Shown here in pieces: positions 1,950 through 9,690 of a stretch of 9,690 nt of DNA. The notes under the pieces are model-generated. The model did not search any database. It was given only the letters and a program-made list of their open reading frames with translations, and had not been told where the DNA came from. A program made the translations under genes and the position numbers. The DNA is from a virus (Duplodnaviria > Heunggongvirae > Uroviricota > Caudoviricetes): IMG/VR virus record IMGVR_UViG_2548876935_000017. The stretch is one strand, 5' to 3'. Within the stretch, counting starts at the first letter, position 1, and every line of letters begins with the position of its first letter.

Positions 1950-3140
1950 ATGAGTGACTATCATCACGGCGTGCAGGTGCTGGAGATTAACGACGGCACC
2001 CGCGTCATTTCCACCGTATCCACTGCCATTGTCGGCATGGTCTGCACGGCCAGCGATGCGGATGCGGAAACCTTTCCCCTCAATAAACCTGTGCTGATTA
2101 CCAATGTGCAGAGCGCAATTGCAAAGGCCGGTAAAAAAGGCACGCTGGCGGCGTCGCTGCAGGCCATCGCCGACCAGTCAAAACCGGTCACCGTTGTTGT
2201 GCGCGTGGAAGACGGCACCGGCGACGACGAGGAAACGAAACTTGCGCAGACCGTTTCCAATATCATCGGCACCACCGACGAAAACGGTCAGTACACCGGA
2301 CTGAAAGCCCTGCTGGCGGCGGAGTCAGTAACCGGTGTTAAACCGCGTATTCTCGGCGTGCCGGGACTGGACACCAAAGAGGTGGCTGTTGCACTGGCAT
2401 CAGTCTGTCAGAAGCTGCGCGCTTTCGGGTATATCAGCGCATGGGGCTGTAAAACCATTTCCGAGGTGAAAGCCTACCGCCAGAATTTCAGCCAGCGTGA
2501 GCTGATGGTCATCTGGCCGGATTTCCTCGCATGGGATACGGTCAGCAGCACCACCGCCACCGCGTATGCCACCGCCCGTGCGCTGGGGCTGCGTGCTAAA
2601 ATCGACCAGGAGCAGGGCTGGCATAAAACGTTGTCCAACGTCGGGGTAAATGGTGTTACCGGCATCAGCGCATCTGTATTCTGGGATTTGCAGGAGTCCG
2701 GCACCGATGCTGACCTGCTGAATGAGTCAGGCGTCACAACGCTGATTCGCCGTGACGGTTTCCGCTTCTGGGGTAACCGTACCTGCTCTGATGACCCGCT
2801 GTTCCTCTTTGAAAACTACACCCGCACCGCGCAGGTACTGGCCGACACGATGGCTGAGGCGCACATGTGGGCGGTGGACAAGCCCATCACCGCAACGCTG
2901 ATTCGCGACATCGTTGACGGCATCAATGCCAAATTCCGTGAGCTGAAAACAAACGGTTATATCGTGGATGCGACCTGCTGGTTCAGCGAAGAATCCAACG
3001 ATGCGGAAACCCTCAAGGCCGGAAAACTGTATATCGACTACGACTATACACCGGTGCCTCCTCTCGAAAACCTGACCCTGCGCCAGCGTATTACCGATAA
3101 ATACCTGGCAAATCTGGTCACCTCGGTTAACAGCAATTAA
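1950..3140 (+). CDS. FI: Contractile tail sheath protein (P2 gpFI-like)
   Basis: 396-aa ORF, RBS GGAG upstream; size and sequence consistent with P2 FI; followed by the tube gene. Confidence 0.9.
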   Translation: MSDYHHGVQVLEINDGTRVISTVSTAIVGMVCTASDADAETFPLNKPVLITNVQSAIAKAGKKGTLAASLQAIADQSKPVTVVVRVEDGTGDDEETKLAQTVSNIIGTTDENGQYTGLKALLAAESVTGVKPRILGVPGLDTKEVAVALASVCQKLRAFGYISAWGCKTISEVKAYRQNFSQRELMVIWPDFLAWDTVSSTTATAYATARALGLRAKIDQEQGWHKTLSNVGVNGVTGISASVFWDLQESGTDADLLNESGVTTLIRRDGFRFWGNRTCSDDPLFLFENYTRTAQVLADTMAEAHMWAVDKPITATLIRDIVDGINAKFRELKTNGYIVDATCWFSEESNDAETLKAGKLYIDYDYTPVPPLENLTLRQRITDKYLANLVTSVNSN

Positions 3141-3152
3141 GGAGCCTGACCG

Positions 3153-3671
3153 ATGGCAATGCCGCGCAAACTCAAGTTAATGAACGTCTTTCTGAACGGC
3201 TACAGCTATCAGGGCGTTGCAAAGTCCGTCACGCTGCCAAAACTGACCCGTAAACTCGAAAACTATCGCGGTGCGGGGATGAACGGCAGCGCACCGGTAG
3301 ACCTCGGCCTTGATGACGATGCGCTGTCAATGGAGTGGTCGCTCGGTGGCTTCCCGGATTCGGTTATCTGGGAGCTTTACGCCGCAACCGGTGTGGATGC
3401 CGTGCCGATTCGTTTTGCAGGCTCTTACCAGCGCGACGATACCGGCGAAACGGTGGCCGTCGAAGTGGTCATGCGTGGACGTCAGAAAGAAATCGACACC
3501 GGCGAGGGTAAACAGGGAGAAGACACTGAGTCGAAAATCTCCGTGGTCTGCACCTATTTCCGGCTGACGATGGACGGTAAGGAGCTGGTCGAAATTGACA
3601 CCATCAACATGATTGAGAAGGTGAACGGCGTCGACCGGCTGGAGCAACACCGCCGCAATATCGGCCTGTAA
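3153..3671 (+). CDS. FII: Tail tube protein (P2 gpFII-like)
   Basis: 172-aa ORF 12 bp after FI, RBS GGAGCC; P2 FII-like size and position. Confidence 0.9.
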   Translation: MAMPRKLKLMNVFLNGYSYQGVAKSVTLPKLTRKLENYRGAGMNGSAPVDLGLDDDALSMEWSLGGFPDSVIWELYAATGVDAVPIRFAGSYQRDDTGETVAVEVVMRGRQKEIDTGEGKQGEDTESKISVVCTYFRLTMDGKELVEIDTINMIEKVNGVDRLEQHRRNIGL

Positions 3672-3678
3672 TTTTCAT

Positions 3679-3699
3679 CCGGTCAGTCAGGCTGACCGG
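3679..3699 (+). other. Intergenic stem-loop (8-bp perfect stem CCGGTCAG / CTGACCGG, 5-nt loop) between FII and E, without a U-tract
   Basis: Read directly from sequence. Confidence 0.4.
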
Positions 3700-3727
3700 T
3701 TAACCCCGATTCAGAAGTGAGAAAACC

Positions 3728-4003
3728 ATGAACAAAGAAAATGTCATTATCCTGGACAATCCGGTTAAACGTGGTGAGCAGGTTATCGAACAGGTCACGC
3801 TGATGAAACCCAATGCAGGGACGCTGCGCGGTGTCAGTCTGGCTGCGGTCGCAAACTCCGAAGTCGATGCACTGATTAAAGTGCTGCCGCGCATGACGGC
3901 ACCGATGCTGACCGAGCAGGAGGTCGCCGCGCTGGAACTGCCTGACCTTGTGGCGCTGGCCGGTAAGGTGGTCGGTTTTTTGTCGCCGAACTCGGTGCAG
4001 TAA
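3728..4003 (+). CDS. E: Tail assembly chaperone gpE (P2 E-like)
   Basis: 91-aa ORF with RBS GAGAAAA upstream; position between the tube and tape-measure genes; contains the T6G slippery site near its 3' end. Confidence 0.85.
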   Translation: MNKENVIILDNPVKRGEQVIEQVTLMKPNAGTLRGVSLAAVANSEVDALIKVLPRMTAPMLTEQEVAALELPDLVALAGKVVGFLSPNSVQ

Positions 4004-4155
4004 CGTTCCCGAAAAATCTGTCGGTCGATGACCTGATGGCGGATGTGGCAGTGATATTTCACTGGCCGCCATCAGAACTGTATCCCATGAGCCTGACCGA
4101 ACTCATCACATGGCGCGAAAAGGCGCTCCGGCGAAGCGGAAACACGAATGAGTAA
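3728..4155 (+). CDS. E+E': gpE+E' frameshift fusion: -1 programmed ribosomal frameshift at the slippery heptamer 3976-3982, extension terminating at TAA 4153-4155
   Basis: In E frame the codons are GGT TTT TTG (3974-3982). The -1 frame is open from the slip site and reads …FFVAELGAVTFPKNLSVDDLMADVAVIFHWPPSELYPMSLTELITWREKALRRSGNTNE*, overlapping the start of T as in P2. Confidence 0.7.
3976..3982 (+). other. Slippery heptamer T TTT TTG for the E/E' -1 frameshift
   Basis: Read directly from sequence; same heptamer class as the P2 E/E' site. Confidence 0.7.
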
Positions 4156-6595
4156 CAATGTAAAATTACAGGTATTGCTCAGGGCTGTTGACCAGGCATC
4201 CCGCCCGTTTAAATCCATCCGCACAGCGAGTAAGTCGCTGTCGGGGGATATCCGGGAAACACAAAAATCACTACGCGAGCTGAACGGTCACGCATCCCGT
4301 ATTGAGGGATTCCGCAAGACCAGCGCACAGCTCGCCGTGACTGGTCATGCACTTGAAAAGGCACGGCAGGAGGCCGAAGCCCTTGCCACACAGTTTAAAA
4401 ACACCGAACGTCCGACCCGTGCTCAGGCGAAAGTGCTGGAATCAGCAAAGCGAGCGGCGGAAGACTTACAGGCGAAATATAACCGCCTGACGGATTCCGT
4501 TAAACGCCAGCAGCGGGAACTGGCCGCTGTGGGAATTAATACCCGCAATCTTGCACATGATGAGCAGGGGCTGAAAAACCGTATCAGTGAAACCACCGCA
4601 CAGCTTAACCGTCAGCGCGACGCACTGGCGCGTGTCAGTGCACAACAGGCAAAACTTAACGCAGTCAAACAGCGTTATCAGGCCGGAAAAGAACTGGCAG
4701 GAAATATGGCCTCAGTGGGCGCTGCCGGTGTGGGGATTGCTGCTGCGGGAACGATGGCCGGAGTTAAGCTGCTGATGCCCGGTTATGAGTTTGCGCAGAA
4801 AAACTCAGAATTGCAGGCTGTGCTCGGTGTGGCAAAAGACTCCGCCGAAATGGCCGCACTACGCAAGCAGGCGCGCCAGCTCGGTGACAATACCGCCGCC
4901 TCAGCGGATGATGCGGCCGGTGCGCAGATTATCATTGCGAAAGCGGGTGGAGATGTTGATGCCATTCAGGCGGCAACGCCGGTCACGCTGAACATGGCGC
5001 TGGCGAACCGTCGCACGATGGAAGAAAACGCCGCCCTGCTGATGGGGATGAAATCTGCCTTTCAGCTTTCAAACGATAAGGTCGCTCATATCGGGGATGT
5101 TCTCTCCATGACGATGAACAAAACCGCCGCTGATTTTGACGGCATGAGCGATGCGCTGACCTATGCCGCACCAGTGGCAAAAAATGCCGGTGTCAGCATT
5201 GAAGAAACTGCCGCAATGGTCGGGGCGCTGCATGATGCAAAAATCACAGGCTCAATGGCGGGGACGGGAAGCCGTGCCGTGTTAAGTCGCCTGCAGGCAC
5301 CGACTGGAAAAGCATGGGATGCACTCAAAGAGCTTGGCGTGAAAACCTCAGACAGTAAGGGAAACACCCGACCAGTATTTACCATTCTGAAAGAAATGCA
5401 GGCCAGCTTTGAGAAAAACCGGCTCGGTACTGCCCAGCAGGCCGAATACATGAAAACCATTTTCGGGGAGGAGGCCAGCTCAGCCGCCGCTGTGCTGATG
5501 ACTGCCGCGTCAACCGGAAAGCTGGACAAACTGACCGCTGCGTTTAAAGCCTCAGACGGGAAGACCGCAGAGCTGGTAAATATCATGCAGGACAACCTCG
5601 GCGGTGACTTTAAGGAGTTTCAGTCCGCTTATGAGGCGGTGGGGACAGACCTGTTTGACCAGCAGGAAGGCGCACTGCGTAAGCTCACGCAGACGGCCAC
5701 AAAGTATGTGTTAAAACTCGACGGCTGGATCCAGAAAAACAAATCACTGGCGTCAACCATCGGCCTCATTGTCGGTGGTGCACTGGCGCTGACTGCTGTC
5801 ATCGGTGCCATTGGCCTCGTAGCCTGGCCGGTTATCACTGGCATCAATGCCATCATCGCGGCAGCAGGCGCAATGGGGGCAATCTTCACGACGGTTGGCA
5901 GTGCTGTTATGACGGCCATCGGGGCGATTAGCTGGCCGGTTGTGGCCGTGGTGGCCGCCATTGTCGCCGGGGCGTTACTTATCCATAAATACTGGGAGCC
6001 TGTCAGCGCATTCTTTGGCGGTGTGGTGGAAGGGCTGAAAGCGGCATTTGCGCCGGTGGGAGAACTGTTCACGCCACTGAAGCCGGTGTTTGACTGGCTG
6101 GGCGAAAAGTTACAGGCCGCGTGGCAGTGGTTTAAAAACCTGATTGCCCCGGTCAAAGCCACACAGGACACCCTGAACCGTTGCCGTGACACGGGCGTCA
6201 TGTTCGGGCAGGCACTGGCTGACGCGCTGATGCTGCCGCTTAATGCGTTCAACAAACTGCGCAGCGGTATTGACTGGGTACTGGAAAAACTCGGTGTTAT
6301 CAACAAAGAGTCAGACACACTTGACCAGACCGCAGCCAGAACTCATGCCGCCACGTATGGCACCGGTGGTTATATTCCGGCGATCAGCTCTTATGCAGGC
6401 TATCAGGCTTATCAGCCGGTTACGGCACCGGCTGGCCGCTCTTATGTGGACCAGAGTAAAAACGAATATCACATCAACCTGACGGGCGGTACTGCGCCGG
6501 GAACACAGCTTGACCGCCAGTTACAGGATGCGCTCGAAAAATACGAGCGGGATAAACGTGCGCGCGCCCGTGCCAGCATGATGCATGACGGTTAA
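4148..6595 (+). CDS. T: Tail tape measure protein (P2 gpT-like)
   Basis: 815-aa ORF after E/E'; coiled-coil-like, Ala/Gln/Lys-rich N-terminal half and a long hydrophobic Gly/Ala-rich segment typical of tape measure proteins. Confidence 0.9.
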   Translation: MSNNVKLQVLLRAVDQASRPFKSIRTASKSLSGDIRETQKSLRELNGHASRIEGFRKTSAQLAVTGHALEKARQEAEALATQFKNTERPTRAQAKVLESAKRAAEDLQAKYNRLTDSVKRQQRELAAVGINTRNLAHDEQGLKNRISETTAQLNRQRDALARVSAQQAKLNAVKQRYQAGKELAGNMASVGAAGVGIAAAGTMAGVKLLMPGYEFAQKNSELQAVLGVAKDSAEMAALRKQARQLGDNTAASADDAAGAQIIIAKAGGDVDAIQAATPVTLNMALANRRTMEENAALLMGMKSAFQLSNDKVAHIGDVLSMTMNKTAADFDGMSDALTYAAPVAKNAGVSIEETAAMVGALHDAKITGSMAGTGSRAVLSRLQAPTGKAWDALKELGVKTSDSKGNTRPVFTILKEMQASFEKNRLGTAQQAEYMKTIFGEEASSAAAVLMTAASTGKLDKLTAAFKASDGKTAELVNIMQDNLGGDFKEFQSAYEAVGTDLFDQQEGALRKLTQTATKYVLKLDGWIQKNKSLASTIGLIVGGALALTAVIGAIGLVAWPVITGINAIIAAAGAMGAIFTTVGSAVMTAIGAISWPVVAVVAAIVAGALLIHKYWEPVSAFFGGVVEGLKAAFAPVGELFTPLKPVFDWLGEKLQAAWQWFKNLIAPVKATQDTLNRCRDTGVMFGQALADALMLPLNAFNKLRSGIDWVLEKLGVINKESDTLDQTAARTHAATYGTGGYIPAISSYAGYQAYQPVTAPAGRSYVDQSKNEYHINLTGGTAPGTQLDRQLQDALEKYERDKRARARASMMHDG

Positions 6596-6609: not shown

Positions 6610-7089
6610 ATGATGCTCGCGTTAGGTATGTTTGTTTTTATGCGCCAGACGCTGCCACACCAGACCATGCAGCGTGAATCAGATTATCGCTGGCCGTCAA
6701 ATTCCCGTATCGGTAAACGGGATGCCTTTCAGTTTCTCGGTGTGGGTGAGGAAAACATGACGCTTGCCGGTGTGCTTTATCCCGAACTGACCGGCGGCAA
6801 GCTGACGATGACCACGCTCAGACTGATGGCAGAGGAAGGCCGGGCGTGGCCGTTGCTGGATGGCACCGGCATGATTTACGGCATGTATGTCATCAGCAGG
6901 GTGAGTGAAACAGGGAGTATTTTCTTTGCAGACGGCACACCCCGGAAAATTGATTTTACGCTGTCGCTCACCCGCGTTGATGAATCACTGGCCGCGCTTT
7001 ATGGCGATATCGGTAAACAGGCGGAATCGCTCATCGGTAAGGCTGGCAGTATGGCGACTAAATTCACGGGTATGACGGAGGCGGGATAA
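6610..7089 (+). CDS. U: Tail protein gpU-like
   Basis: 159-aa ORF with RBS GGAGG (6596-6600); its stop overlaps the D start (TAATG). Confidence 0.85.
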   Translation: MMLALGMFVFMRQTLPHQTMQRESDYRWPSNSRIGKRDAFQFLGVGEENMTLAGVLYPELTGGKLTMTTLRLMAEEGRAWPLLDGTGMIYGMYVISRVSETGSIFFADGTPRKIDFTLSLTRVDESLAALYGDIGKQAESLIGKAGSMATKFTGMTEAG

Positions 7090-8252
7090 TGCTGGATGCG
7101 CTGACATTTGATGCAGGCAGTACGCTGACGCCGGATTACATGCTGATGCTCGACAGCAGGGATATTACCGGCAATATCAGCGACCGTCTGATGAGCATGA
7201 CCCTGACGGATAATCGGGGCTTTGAGGCTGACCAGCTTGATATTGAACTGAACGACGCCGACGGGCAGGTCGGGCTACCGATTCGCGGCGCTGTCCTGAC
7301 GGTGTATATCGGCTGGAAAGGTTTTGCCCTGGTATGCAAAGGGAAATTTACCGTTGATGAGGTTGAACACCGGGGCGCGCCGGATGTGGTTACCATCCGC
7401 GCCCGGAGTGCAGATTTTCGCGGGACGCTCAATTCCCGCCGGGAAGGCTCCTGGCATGACACCACGCTCGGTGCGATTGTTGAGGCGATAGCCACCCGTA
7501 ACAGGCTGGAAGCCAGTGTCGCTCCGTCACTGGCCGGAATTAAAATCCCGCACATCGACCAGTCGCAGGAGTCTGATGCAAAATTCCTGACCCGCCTTGC
7601 TGAACGCAACGGCGGTGAGGTGTCGGTAAAAATGGGAAAACTGTTGTTTCTCAAAGCGGGGCAGGGGGTGACGTCAAGCGGTAAAAAAATCCCGCAGATT
7701 ACCATCACCCGCAGCGACGGCGACCGTCATCATTTTGCGATTGCTGACCGTGGAGCCTATACCGGCGTAACGGCAAAGTGGCTTCACACCAAAGACCCGA
7801 AGCCGCAAAAGCAGAAGGTAAAACTGAAACGCAAAAAGAAAGAAAAACACCTGCGCGCACTGGAGCACCCGAAAGCGAAACCAGTCACGCAGAAGAAAGC
7901 GCCAAAAGTACCGGAAGCGCGCGAAGGTGAATACATGGCCGGTGAGGCTGACAACGTTTTTGCCCTGACCACGGTATATGCCACGAAAGCACAGGCCATG
8001 CGTGCCGCTCAGGCGAAGTGGGATAAACTGCAACGGGGCGTTGCGGAGTTCTCCATCAGCCTGGCTACCGGTCGTGCAGATATTTACACGGAAACGCCGG
8101 TCAAAGTGTCAGGCTTTAAGCGTGTCATAGACGAGCAGGACTGGACAATCACTAAGGTGACACATTTTCTGAATAATAGCGGCTTCACGACGTCCCTGGA
8201 GCTTGAGGTCAGGCTTTCTGATGTGGAGTACGAAACAGAAGATTATGAGTGA
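7089..8252 (+). CDS. D: Tail/baseplate protein gpD (late control gene D family)
   Basis: 387-aa ORF translationally coupled to U; size and position match P2 D. Confidence 0.88.
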   Translation: MLDALTFDAGSTLTPDYMLMLDSRDITGNISDRLMSMTLTDNRGFEADQLDIELNDADGQVGLPIRGAVLTVYIGWKGFALVCKGKFTVDEVEHRGAPDVVTIRARSADFRGTLNSRREGSWHDTTLGAIVEAIATRNRLEASVAPSLAGIKIPHIDQSQESDAKFLTRLAERNGGEVSVKMGKLLFLKAGQGVTSSGKKIPQITITRSDGDRHHFAIADRGAYTGVTAKWLHTKDPKPQKQKVKLKRKKKEKHLRALEHPKAKPVTQKKAPKVPEAREGEYMAGEADNVFALTTVYATKAQAMRAAQAKWDKLQRGVAEFSISLATGRADIYTETPVKVSGFKRVIDEQDWTITKVTHFLNNSGFTTSLELEVRLSDVEYETEDYE

Positions 8253-8333
8253 TGTCTTTTGTTTATCTGTTTGTTTTATAAGGATAAATTAACTAAAATG
8301 GCACTATCAACAAAACCGGAAGAGGTGCTCGCG

Positions 8334-8552
8334 ATGTTTCATTGTCCTTTATGCCAGCATGCCGCACATGCGCGTACAAGCCGCTATATCACTGACACGA
8401 CAAAAGAGCGTTATCACCAGTGCCAGAACGTGAATTGCAGCGCCACGTTCATCACTTATGAGTCGGTACAGCGATACATCGTGAAGCCGGGAGAAGTCCA
8501 CGCCGTGAGGCCGCACCCGTTGCCGTCAGGGCAGCAAATTATGTGGATGTGA
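8334..8552 (+). CDS. ogr: Late transcription activator Ogr (zinc-finger)
   Basis: 72-aa product starting MFHCPLCQHAAH… with a Cys-X2-Cys…Cys-X4-Cys motif (CPLC, CQNVNC). The ORF track begins at an upstream ATG (8259); the internal ATG at 8334 gives the canonical 72-aa Ogr. Confidence 0.85.
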   Translation: MFHCPLCQHAAHARTSRYITDTTKERYHQCQNVNCSATFITYESVQRYIVKPGEVHAVRPHPLPSGQQIMWM

Positions 8553-8562
8553 TCACAAAAAT

Positions 8563-8589
8563 AGCCCCTCAGTTGAGGGGCTTATTTAT
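8563..8589. terminator. Intrinsic terminator hairpin after ogr (AGCCCCTC-AGTT-GAGGGGCT, then TATTTAT); A-run on the 5' side makes it potentially bidirectional
   Basis: Read directly from sequence. Confidence 0.6.
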
Positions 8590-8679
8590 GGTCGATGTGG
8601 ACGCTATGTGGACAGTGGTTGACATAAATCCATTTATATCATCAGGTTAGGTGCTTTTTTGTGACACCATCCCTGTCTT

Positions 8680-8706
8680 CCCCCACATGATGTGGGGGTT
8701 TTTTTT
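8680..8706 (+). terminator. Strong rho-independent terminator (CCCCCACAT-G-ATGTGGGGG followed by T8)
   Basis: Read directly from sequence; GC-rich 9-bp stem plus U-tract, 81 bp upstream of the fieF start. Confidence 0.7.
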
Positions 8707-8732
8707 ATCCTCAATTTGCCTGCTGCTTAATG

Positions 8733-8761
8733 CATTGCAGATGATTTGCTTCCGTTATACT
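8733..8761 (+). promoter_or_regulatory. Candidate sigma70 promoter for fieF (-10 TATACT at 8756-8761; weak -35-like TTGCAG at 8735-8740)
   Basis: Hexamer inspection only; spacing is suboptimal. Confidence 0.3.
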
Positions 8762-8787
8762 AGCGTCAGTTGATAGCGGGAGTATTT

Positions 8788-9690
8788 ATGAATCAATCTT
8801 ATGGACGGCTGGTCAGTCGGGCGGCGATTGCTGCGACGGCGATGGCTTCGCTGCTATTGCTGATTAAAATTTTTGCATGGTGGTATACCGGGTCGGTGAG
8901 TATTCTCGCCGCGCTGGTGGATTCGCTGGTGGATATCGGCGCGTCGTTGACGAATTTATTGGTGGTGCGATATTCCCTGCAACCTGCCGACGATAATCAC
9001 TCGTTTGGTCACGGTAAAGCTGAGTCCCTCGCGGCGCTGGCGCAAAGTATGTTTATCTCCGGTTCGGCACTATTCCTGTTTTTGACGGGTATTCAACATC
9101 TGATATCTCCAACACCGATGACAGATCCAGGCGTCGGGGTTATCGTGACAATTGTGGCGCTAATTTGTACGATTATCCTTGTCTCGTTTCAGCGTTGGGT
9201 GGTGCGGCGGACGCAAAGCCAGGCGGTGCGGGCTGATATGCTACATTACCAGTCTGATGTTATGATGAACGGCGCAATTCTGCTGGCGCTGGGGTTGTCC
9301 TGGTACGGCTGGCATCGCGCCGATGCTCTGTTTGCATTGGGAATCGGCATCTATATTTTATATAGCGCGTTACGCATGGGATATGAGGCGGTACAGTCAT
9401 TACTGGATCGCGCATTGCCTGATGAGGAACGGCAAGAAATTATTGATATCGTGACTTCCTGGCCGGGTGTTAGCGGCGCTCACGATCTTCGCACGCGGCA
9501 GTCAGGGCCGACCCGCTTTATTCAGATTCATTTGGAAATGGAAGACTCTCTGCCTTTGGTTCAGGCACATATGGTGGCGGATCAGGTAGAGCAGGCTATT
9601 TTACGGCGTTTTCCGGGATCGGATGTAATTATCCATCAGGACCCCTGTTCCGTCGTACCCAGGGAGGGTAAACGGTCTATGCTTTCATAA
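8788..9690 (+). CDS. fieF: Cation-diffusion-facilitator ferrous iron/zinc efflux transporter FieF (YiiP)
   Basis: 300-aa product from ATG 8788 ([25 protein letters not shown]…), recognised as E. coli FieF/YiiP; multiple hydrophobic helices and a C-terminal cytoplasmic domain. The ORF track's TTG start at 8770 is an upstream extension. Confidence 0.9.

Follow-up and report, generated by a model that had tools for sequence, protein, structure and literature searches.

Gene E of a P2-like prophage very probably carries the P2 E/E' -1 frameshift, with a candidate Shine-Dalgarno-like element upstream of the slip site

Background

The -1 frameshift in tail gene E of phage P2 was reportedly verified by Christie et al. 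in 2002 via fusion polypeptides, with a frequency said to be ~10%, and E' is likewise said to be essential, both products being needed for tail assembly. In the P2 genome record (NC_001895), a CDS E and a joined CDS E+E' (labelled "-1 frameshift" and sharing the gpE amino terminus) are annotated together with a misc_feature that marks the frameshift site. The shift takes place at TTTTTTG, so that E (91 aa) and E+E' (142 aa) are made from one start (PMC3091744), and no 3' structure has been reported either for P2 or for Burkholderia phages (PMC3091744). According to the review by Atkins et al., the P2 frameshift is 2-3 times as efficient as that of lambda G-T (PMC5009743).

The DNA analyzed here is a 9,690 nt stretch from a virus of the class Caudoviricetes (IMG/VR record IMGVR_UViG_2548876935_000017), the whole of which is referred to below as the window. 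A programmed -1 frameshift producing gpE+E', matching that of P2 and analogous to that of lambda G/GT, had been proposed for this stretch from its letters and open reading frames. When positions 3700-4170 were aligned with the P2 E/E' region, the two were found to be 97.5% identical in DNA (12 mismatches in 471 columns), with the heptamer and its flanks identical. There are 11 nucleotide differences in the 428 nt coding region, of which two are non-synonymous. The predicted 142 aa fusion is identical to that of P2 at 140 of 142 positions (the differences are I8T and N29S), and the E' extension at 57 of 57. This alignment of the extension, together with the -1 product annotated in NC_001895, bears out the match to P2 claimed in the original prediction. 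Because of this identity, the question of what the feature is can be regarded as settled: it is the textbook E/E' frameshift of P2, carried here by a P2-like prophage, and it is already known.

Within E', the three nucleotides that differ from P2 all occupy third codon positions in the -1 frame. One of these changes alters the E stop codon, which is TAA here and TGA in P2, and is silent in E' (GTG to GTA, both Val). This stop codon change is a small illustration of dual-coding constraint.

Prophage setting

The window contains the tail operon of a P2-like prophage in the order FI-FII-E-E'-T-U-D-ogr and adjoins the host gene fieF (Table 1). Pfam matches to the neighbouring ORFs indicate that the order of the P2 FETUD operon (sheath, tube, E/E', tape measure, U, D) is kept, and the synteny is fixed by the position of FII upstream of E. 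A megablast search with positions 3600-4300 matched 82 phage records, 81 of them over nearly the full length and mostly at 95-99% identity; these were predominantly P2 and other Peduovirus phages of Escherichia and Yersinia. Over the full 9.7 kb, the window is at most 97.5% identical to fieF-adjacent P2-like prophages in E. coli chromosomes.

Positions 1-1890 of the window form an invertible tail fibre segment that is not present at this place in P2. A crossover-site-like sequence of 27 nt is located at 1215-1241. In E. coli ATCC 8739, the inverted partner of this 27 nt site is found ~1.9 kb upstream, a position that would fall outside the window. At the other side of the operon, positions 8552-8770 correspond to the right end of the prophage, and similarity to P2 (the ogr terminator and the Int P-arm region) ends near 8650. 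The P2 attP core, AAAAAATAAGCCCGTGTAAGGGAGATT, was not found at this prophage right end (8552-8770), which points to a different attachment site just upstream of fieF.

Table 1. Coordinates of features of the E/E' locus and its surroundings in the window
Feature	Position	Strand	Basis
Tail fibre assembly gene, invertible segment	89-694	-	
Alternative fibre C-terminus, invertible segment	691-1269	-	Collar domain
Serine recombinase, invertible segment	1297-1890		PF00239 + PF02796
FI, sheath	1950-3140		Pfam
FII, major tail tube protein gene	3153..3671	+	PF04985 Phage_tube 2.3e-60; FII in annotation of P2 and relatives
E, zero-frame gpE, 91 aa, tail assembly chaperone	3728..4003	+	ORF; PF10109 Phage_TAC_7 1.8e-11; phrog_103 2e-42
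Full E+E' coding region, 142 aa predicted fusion	3728..4155	+	Length and coordinates match P2 CDS E+E'
Candidate SD-like AGGUGG (AGGTG 3966-3970, GGTGG 3967-3971)	3966..3971	+	Synonymous conservation
Slippery heptamer T_TTT_TTG	3976..3982	+	E phase; same as frameshift site marked in P2
E' segment, -1 frame, 57 codons + TAA	3982..4155	+	PF06528 2.2e-22; phrog_1756
T, tape measure protein	4148..6595	+	PF10145 1.8e-45; T/tape measure in P2 and E. coli annotation
U	6610-7089		Pfam
D	7089-8252		Pfam
Ogr	8259-8552		Pfam
Host FieF	8770-9690		Pfam

Slip site and -1 frame

Gene E extends from the ATG at 3728 to the TAA at 4001-4003. Its codons GGT (3974), TTT (3977) and TTG (3980) place TTTTTTG in the canonical X_XXY_YYZ phase, which tandem -1 slippage requires. 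The -1 frame is closed upstream by a TAA at 3964-3966 and is open from 3967 to the TAA at 4153-4155; the first codon in the new frame is GTC at 3982. The claims that had been made for this stretch hold on direct reading. The T6G heptamer lies at 3976-3982 in phase with E, and its distance of seven codons from the E stop is correct if the stop is counted, as six sense codons follow the heptamer in E. No stop codon is found in the -1 frame just past the slip site, and the 58 codons said to be open up to 4155 consist of 57 sense codons and the TAA. This frame does overlap the start of T, by 8 nt at ATG 4148 (ATGAGTAA), and an ORF-based track does miss the fusion, as the ORF list gives only E and T.

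TTTTTTG occurs three times in the window, against 2.37 copies expected, so its count alone is not above chance. The significance of this copy comes instead from its phase, its position, its conservation and the homology of the extension that follows it.

The zero-frame E stop is located 144 nt upstream of the overlap between the T start codon and the E' stop codon. Strong conservation is likewise seen at the synonymous sites of 4135-4152. Initiation of T may be coupled to termination by frameshifted ribosomes. A similar 8 nt overlap exists between GT and H of lambda.

Homology of the two protein parts

Both parts of the predicted fusion match Pfam families above the curated cut-offs: the E part matches a tail assembly chaperone family (PF10109) and the extension matches Phage_P2_GpE (PF06528; Table 1). 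The second match, at 2e-22, supplies the homology to E' proteins that the original prediction had called for. In a PHROGs search the fusion matched tail families, with phrog_1756 spanning fusion residues 82-142 and thus starting at the slip site, not at the internal Met. A comparison of the fusion with NCBIfam gave no match, and a sequence search of the PDB gave no meaningful relative.

Conservation among related phages

A tblastn search with the fusion identified 423 phage records; in 400 of these, two matches that lie in different frames together account for at least 80% of the query. Sixteen diverse relatives (35-79% amino acid identity) were then compared, from phages of Klebsiella, Erwinia, Yersinia, Salmonella, Enterobacter, Burkholderia, Ralstonia, Pseudomonas, Shewanella, Vibrio and Mannheimia. 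An in-phase heptamer followed by a -1 ORF was present in all of them. In 12 of the 16 the heptamer at the homologous place is T_TTT_TTG, while the other four have different in-phase heptamers: TTTTTTC in VHML, G_GGA_AAG in Mannheimia phage PHL101, A_AAT_TTT in P88 and C_CCT_TTC in Klebsiella phage Kp4861-1. The PHL101 sequence is also the heptamer of lambda G/GT. In all 16 relatives, the -1 ORF encodes the motif ADIAxIFHW...WRE(K/R)A and ends at or near the start of the tape measure gene. The E stop follows the heptamer at distances of between 5 and 22 codons, which indicates that it is the slip site that is conserved and not the stop.

In the retrieved sequences, the four variant heptamers are found at positions 682-688 (PHL101), 652-658 (P88), 643-649 (Kp4861-1) and 634-640 (VHML). 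Among these four phages, several records leave E' unannotated.

A further 160 loci (141 of them unique) were collected from bacterial genomes and IMG/VR, and every one has an in-phase T_TTT_TTN with an E' ORF. The last base of the heptamer in the 141 unique loci is G in 126, A in 13 and C in two. Codon usage at the slip site was examined in 154 sequences: Gly83 is GGT in 150 of 150, Phe84 is TTT in 154 of 154 and Leu85 is TTG or TTA, never CTN. Comparable codons nearby, such as Gly79 and Phe94 (TTC in 69 sequences, TTT in 55), are freely mixed. The synonymous constraint on the GGT-TTT-TTG slip site is absolute. Overall, the arrangement is found in hundreds of phages and prophages, from the Enterobacterales to Burkholderia, Ralstonia, Pseudomonas, Shewanella and Mannheimia.

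RNA structure near the slip site

A downstream hairpin or pseudoknot that might stimulate the shift was sought and rejected. Neither the 90 nt downstream of the slip site (z = -1.6) nor the slip site itself (z = -0.4) folds better than shuffled sequences, and RNAalifold returned no consensus pairs for the 60 nt downstream in 13 loci.

A consensus scan also picked out a terminator-like hairpin at 3955-3976, with eight pairs (four of them G-U) followed by a T-run. Three pairs at its centre fail to form in 35-50% of sequences, no covariation was seen and the proportion of paired cells (80.4%) is close to that of shuffles (80.7%). This hairpin was rejected as probably due to chance.

Alternative explanations

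Three other explanations of the locus were considered. The first is transcriptional slippage, in which RNA polymerase would add a U within the T6 run and so produce an mRNA for the same fusion. We consider this very unlikely, even though there is a T6 homopolymer in which an added U would be expected to give the same protein. The heptamers G_GGA_AAG, A_AAT_TTT and C_CCT_TTC found in relatives are heteropolymeric and fit tRNA re-pairing, not polymerase slippage. Productive slippage by RNA polymerase usually needs runs longer than six. The weak hairpin and T-run at 3955-3976 do resemble a pause or terminator signal, but the broken pairs and missing covariation described above count against such a role.

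The second explanation, which is slightly less probable still, is that E' is an independent small gene that begins at ATG 4036 and encodes a 39 aa "GpE family phage tail protein". This is exactly the ORF annotated by PGAP in E. coli ATCC 8739, LR595885 and several RefSeq phages are annotated likewise, and the PF06528 match begins at its Met (Met104 of the fusion). An independent E' gene was rejected for the following reasons. First, ATG 4036 is the sole in-frame start and lacks an SD-like sequence (the upstream bases are gtcggtcgatgacctg). Second, the -1 frame is conserved as protein over 3982-4035, before this ATG, as judged from the alignment and from the extent of the phrog_1756 match. Third, the Met is not conserved, and relatives have V, I, A or W at this position. 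Fourth, the part of the -1 ORF that precedes the conserved motif contains no ATG, GTG or TTG in five relatives, and in RSA1 its sole start is a GTG located 411 nt ahead of the heptamer; as a start codon for E' is absent in several relatives, E' is not a separate gene. Finally, the literature describes E+E' as being made from the E start (PMC3091744).

The third explanation, that the heptamer and the open frame adjoin by chance or that the gene is broken or mis-sequenced, with no function in either case, can draw on the unremarkable heptamer count and on a 57-codon open frame that is not very improbable by itself, but it is refuted by the PF06528 match of the extension and by conservation of the arrangement in hundreds of phages and prophages, which leave it a negligible probability.

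Proposed mechanism and function

Based on these results, it is very probable that a programmed -1 ribosomal frameshift takes place in gene E of this P2-like prophage, and we saw no argument in the sequence against it. The data presented here are sequence readings; the occurrence of the shift, its frequency and the roles of the products as chaperones are taken to follow what the literature describes. Most ribosomes would read E to its TAA and produce the 91 aa chaperone gpE. A minority would slip back by one base on U_UUU_UUG, with UUU in the P site and UUG in the A site, and would then read 57 further codons in the -1 frame to give the 142 aa gpE+E'. Residue 85 would be Leu following tandem slippage, or Phe if the P-site tRNA slips before the A-site codon is decoded. 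The predicted fusion junction is ...GF(L/F)VAELG..., giving a peptide ...VVGFLVAELGAVTFPK or GFFV. Apparently, no 3' RNA structure would be needed.

By analogy with lambda gpG/gpGT, the N-terminal chaperone domain shared by gpE and gpE+E' may coat the tape measure protein T, while the E' domain may recruit the tail tube protein FII. A fixed slip rate would then set the ratio of gpE to gpE+E'. These putative chaperone roles are suggested by synteny and by family membership. The position of E/E' agrees with the analogy to lambda G/GT drawn in the original prediction: E/E', too, is located between the tail tube and tape measure genes.

Shine-Dalgarno-like element upstream of the heptamer

In what it shares with P2, the locus holds nothing biologically new. 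The sole further lead is a conserved SD-like AGGUG upstream of the slip site. The heptamer U_UU.U_UU.G is absent from those found to be efficient in E. coli reporters (Sharma et al. 2014, PMC4066793). A heptamer that is weak in reporters and a P2 efficiency above that of lambda leave an explanatory gap, which an SD-like element may fill.

The lowest-entropy synonymous run of the whole E gene begins two codons before the heptamer. Lys80 is encoded by AAG in 130 of 132 sequences, whereas the other Lys codons of E are mixed or prefer AAA, and Val81 is encoded by GTG in 145 of 153. AGGTG is retained even in sequences with Gln (CAG) or Glu (GAG) in place of Lys80. The SD-like sequences listed by Sharma et al. 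2014, citing Prere et al., include AGGKG and GGNGG, and the range criterion given for such sequences is 6-17 nt upstream, counted to the second base of the heptamer (PMC4066793). The spacing of AGGTG here is 6 (4 nt to the heptamer), which is the lower limit of that range.

Among 18 diverse loci from related sequences, 13 have an SD-like motif in range, compared with 9.6% of the in-frame positions taken as controls from the same genes. Lineages differ both in the motif and in where it lies: for example, GAGG is found at 8, GGGGG at 13-14, AGGTG at 9 and GGAG at 11. The five loci without an in-range motif are those of four phages from a group with a longer E' linker and of VHML, which has motifs at 18-21 nt. 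In the window, the anti-SD duplex UAAGGUGGU has a predicted energy of -8.1 kcal/mol, which ranks within the top 2.4% of the gene. In seven of the 18 loci, the best anti-SD site of the E ORF falls within the 24 nt that precede the heptamer, and in 14 loci these 24 nt contain a top-6% site.

A stronger SD-like sequence, GGAGGT (-11 kcal/mol with the anti-SD), is located at 3919-3924, ~52 nt upstream of the heptamer. Its P2 counterpart is GGAAGT, so this sequence lacks conservation and is probably of no relevance.

The pattern of synonymous conservation around AGGUGG is suggestive, and this element may be a 5' stimulator of the shift. It would pair with 16S rRNA and pause the ribosome with UUU in the P site. 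A more general proposal is that the E/E' signal has two parts, the heptamer and an internal SD-like element (GAGG, GGNGG or GGAG in other lineages); we put this forward tentatively, as a possibility somewhat less probable than its converse. If true, it would identify the missing stimulator and would account for a weak heptamer that exceeds the efficiency of lambda without a 3' structure. No description of an SD stimulator for the frameshift of P2 or other tail chaperones was found in the literature searched, to which the primary P2 paper did not belong. A role for AGGUGG may be new, with an earlier description possible.

Annotation of the locus

PGAP splits this locus into a "phage tail assembly protein" and the 39 aa "GpE family phage tail protein" (4036-4155), and in many phage records the E and E' pieces are listed as "hypothetical protein". 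The Pfam model mirrors this split annotation, since PF06528 starts at Met104. Automatic pipelines and the PF06528 model thus continue to propagate it. A proper annotation would consist of a joined CDS E+E' (3728..3982 then 3982..4155) alongside E, with no 39 aa orphan.

Comparison with known systems

The candidate upstream element may be comparable to that of signals of the dnaX and IS911 type, which have an SD-like sequence upstream of an X_XXY_YYZ heptamer; here, AGGUGG is conserved at synonymous sites. In contrast to those signals, the element is separated from the heptamer by a short spacer of 4 nt, and there is no downstream hairpin.

As in lambda G/GT (Levin et al. 1993; Xu et al. 2004, 2013, 2014), the frameshifted pair is located between the tube and tape measure genes. 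The lambda shift requires no 3' structure and fixes the product ratio (PMC5009743), as is proposed here. The two systems differ in that no similarity to the lambda G/T sequences can be detected (the Pfam families here being PF10109 and PF06528), in that the heptamer is U_UUU_UUG as opposed to G_GGA_AAG and in that the tail of this phage is contractile. The wider G/GT type described by Xu, Hendrix and Duda 2004 has two overlapping ORFs with a conserved slippery link in the interval between the tube and tape measure genes, and this arrangement is found in the window. In that type, the slip site and frame relation are kept despite low protein identity, as they are among the 16 phages compared here (35-79%). 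Further hallmarks of the type are a chaperone fold, tape measure binding and absence from the virion.

The closest known system is P2 itself. Although this prophage differs from P2 in having an invertible tail fibre segment and a different attachment site, the window has the same FI-FII-E-E'-T-U-D-ogr order and the same 8 nt T overlap as the P2 genome. E and E+E' of P2 (NP_046781 and NP_046780) have the heptamer in common with this locus at the same codons, and the same lengths of 91 and 142 aa.
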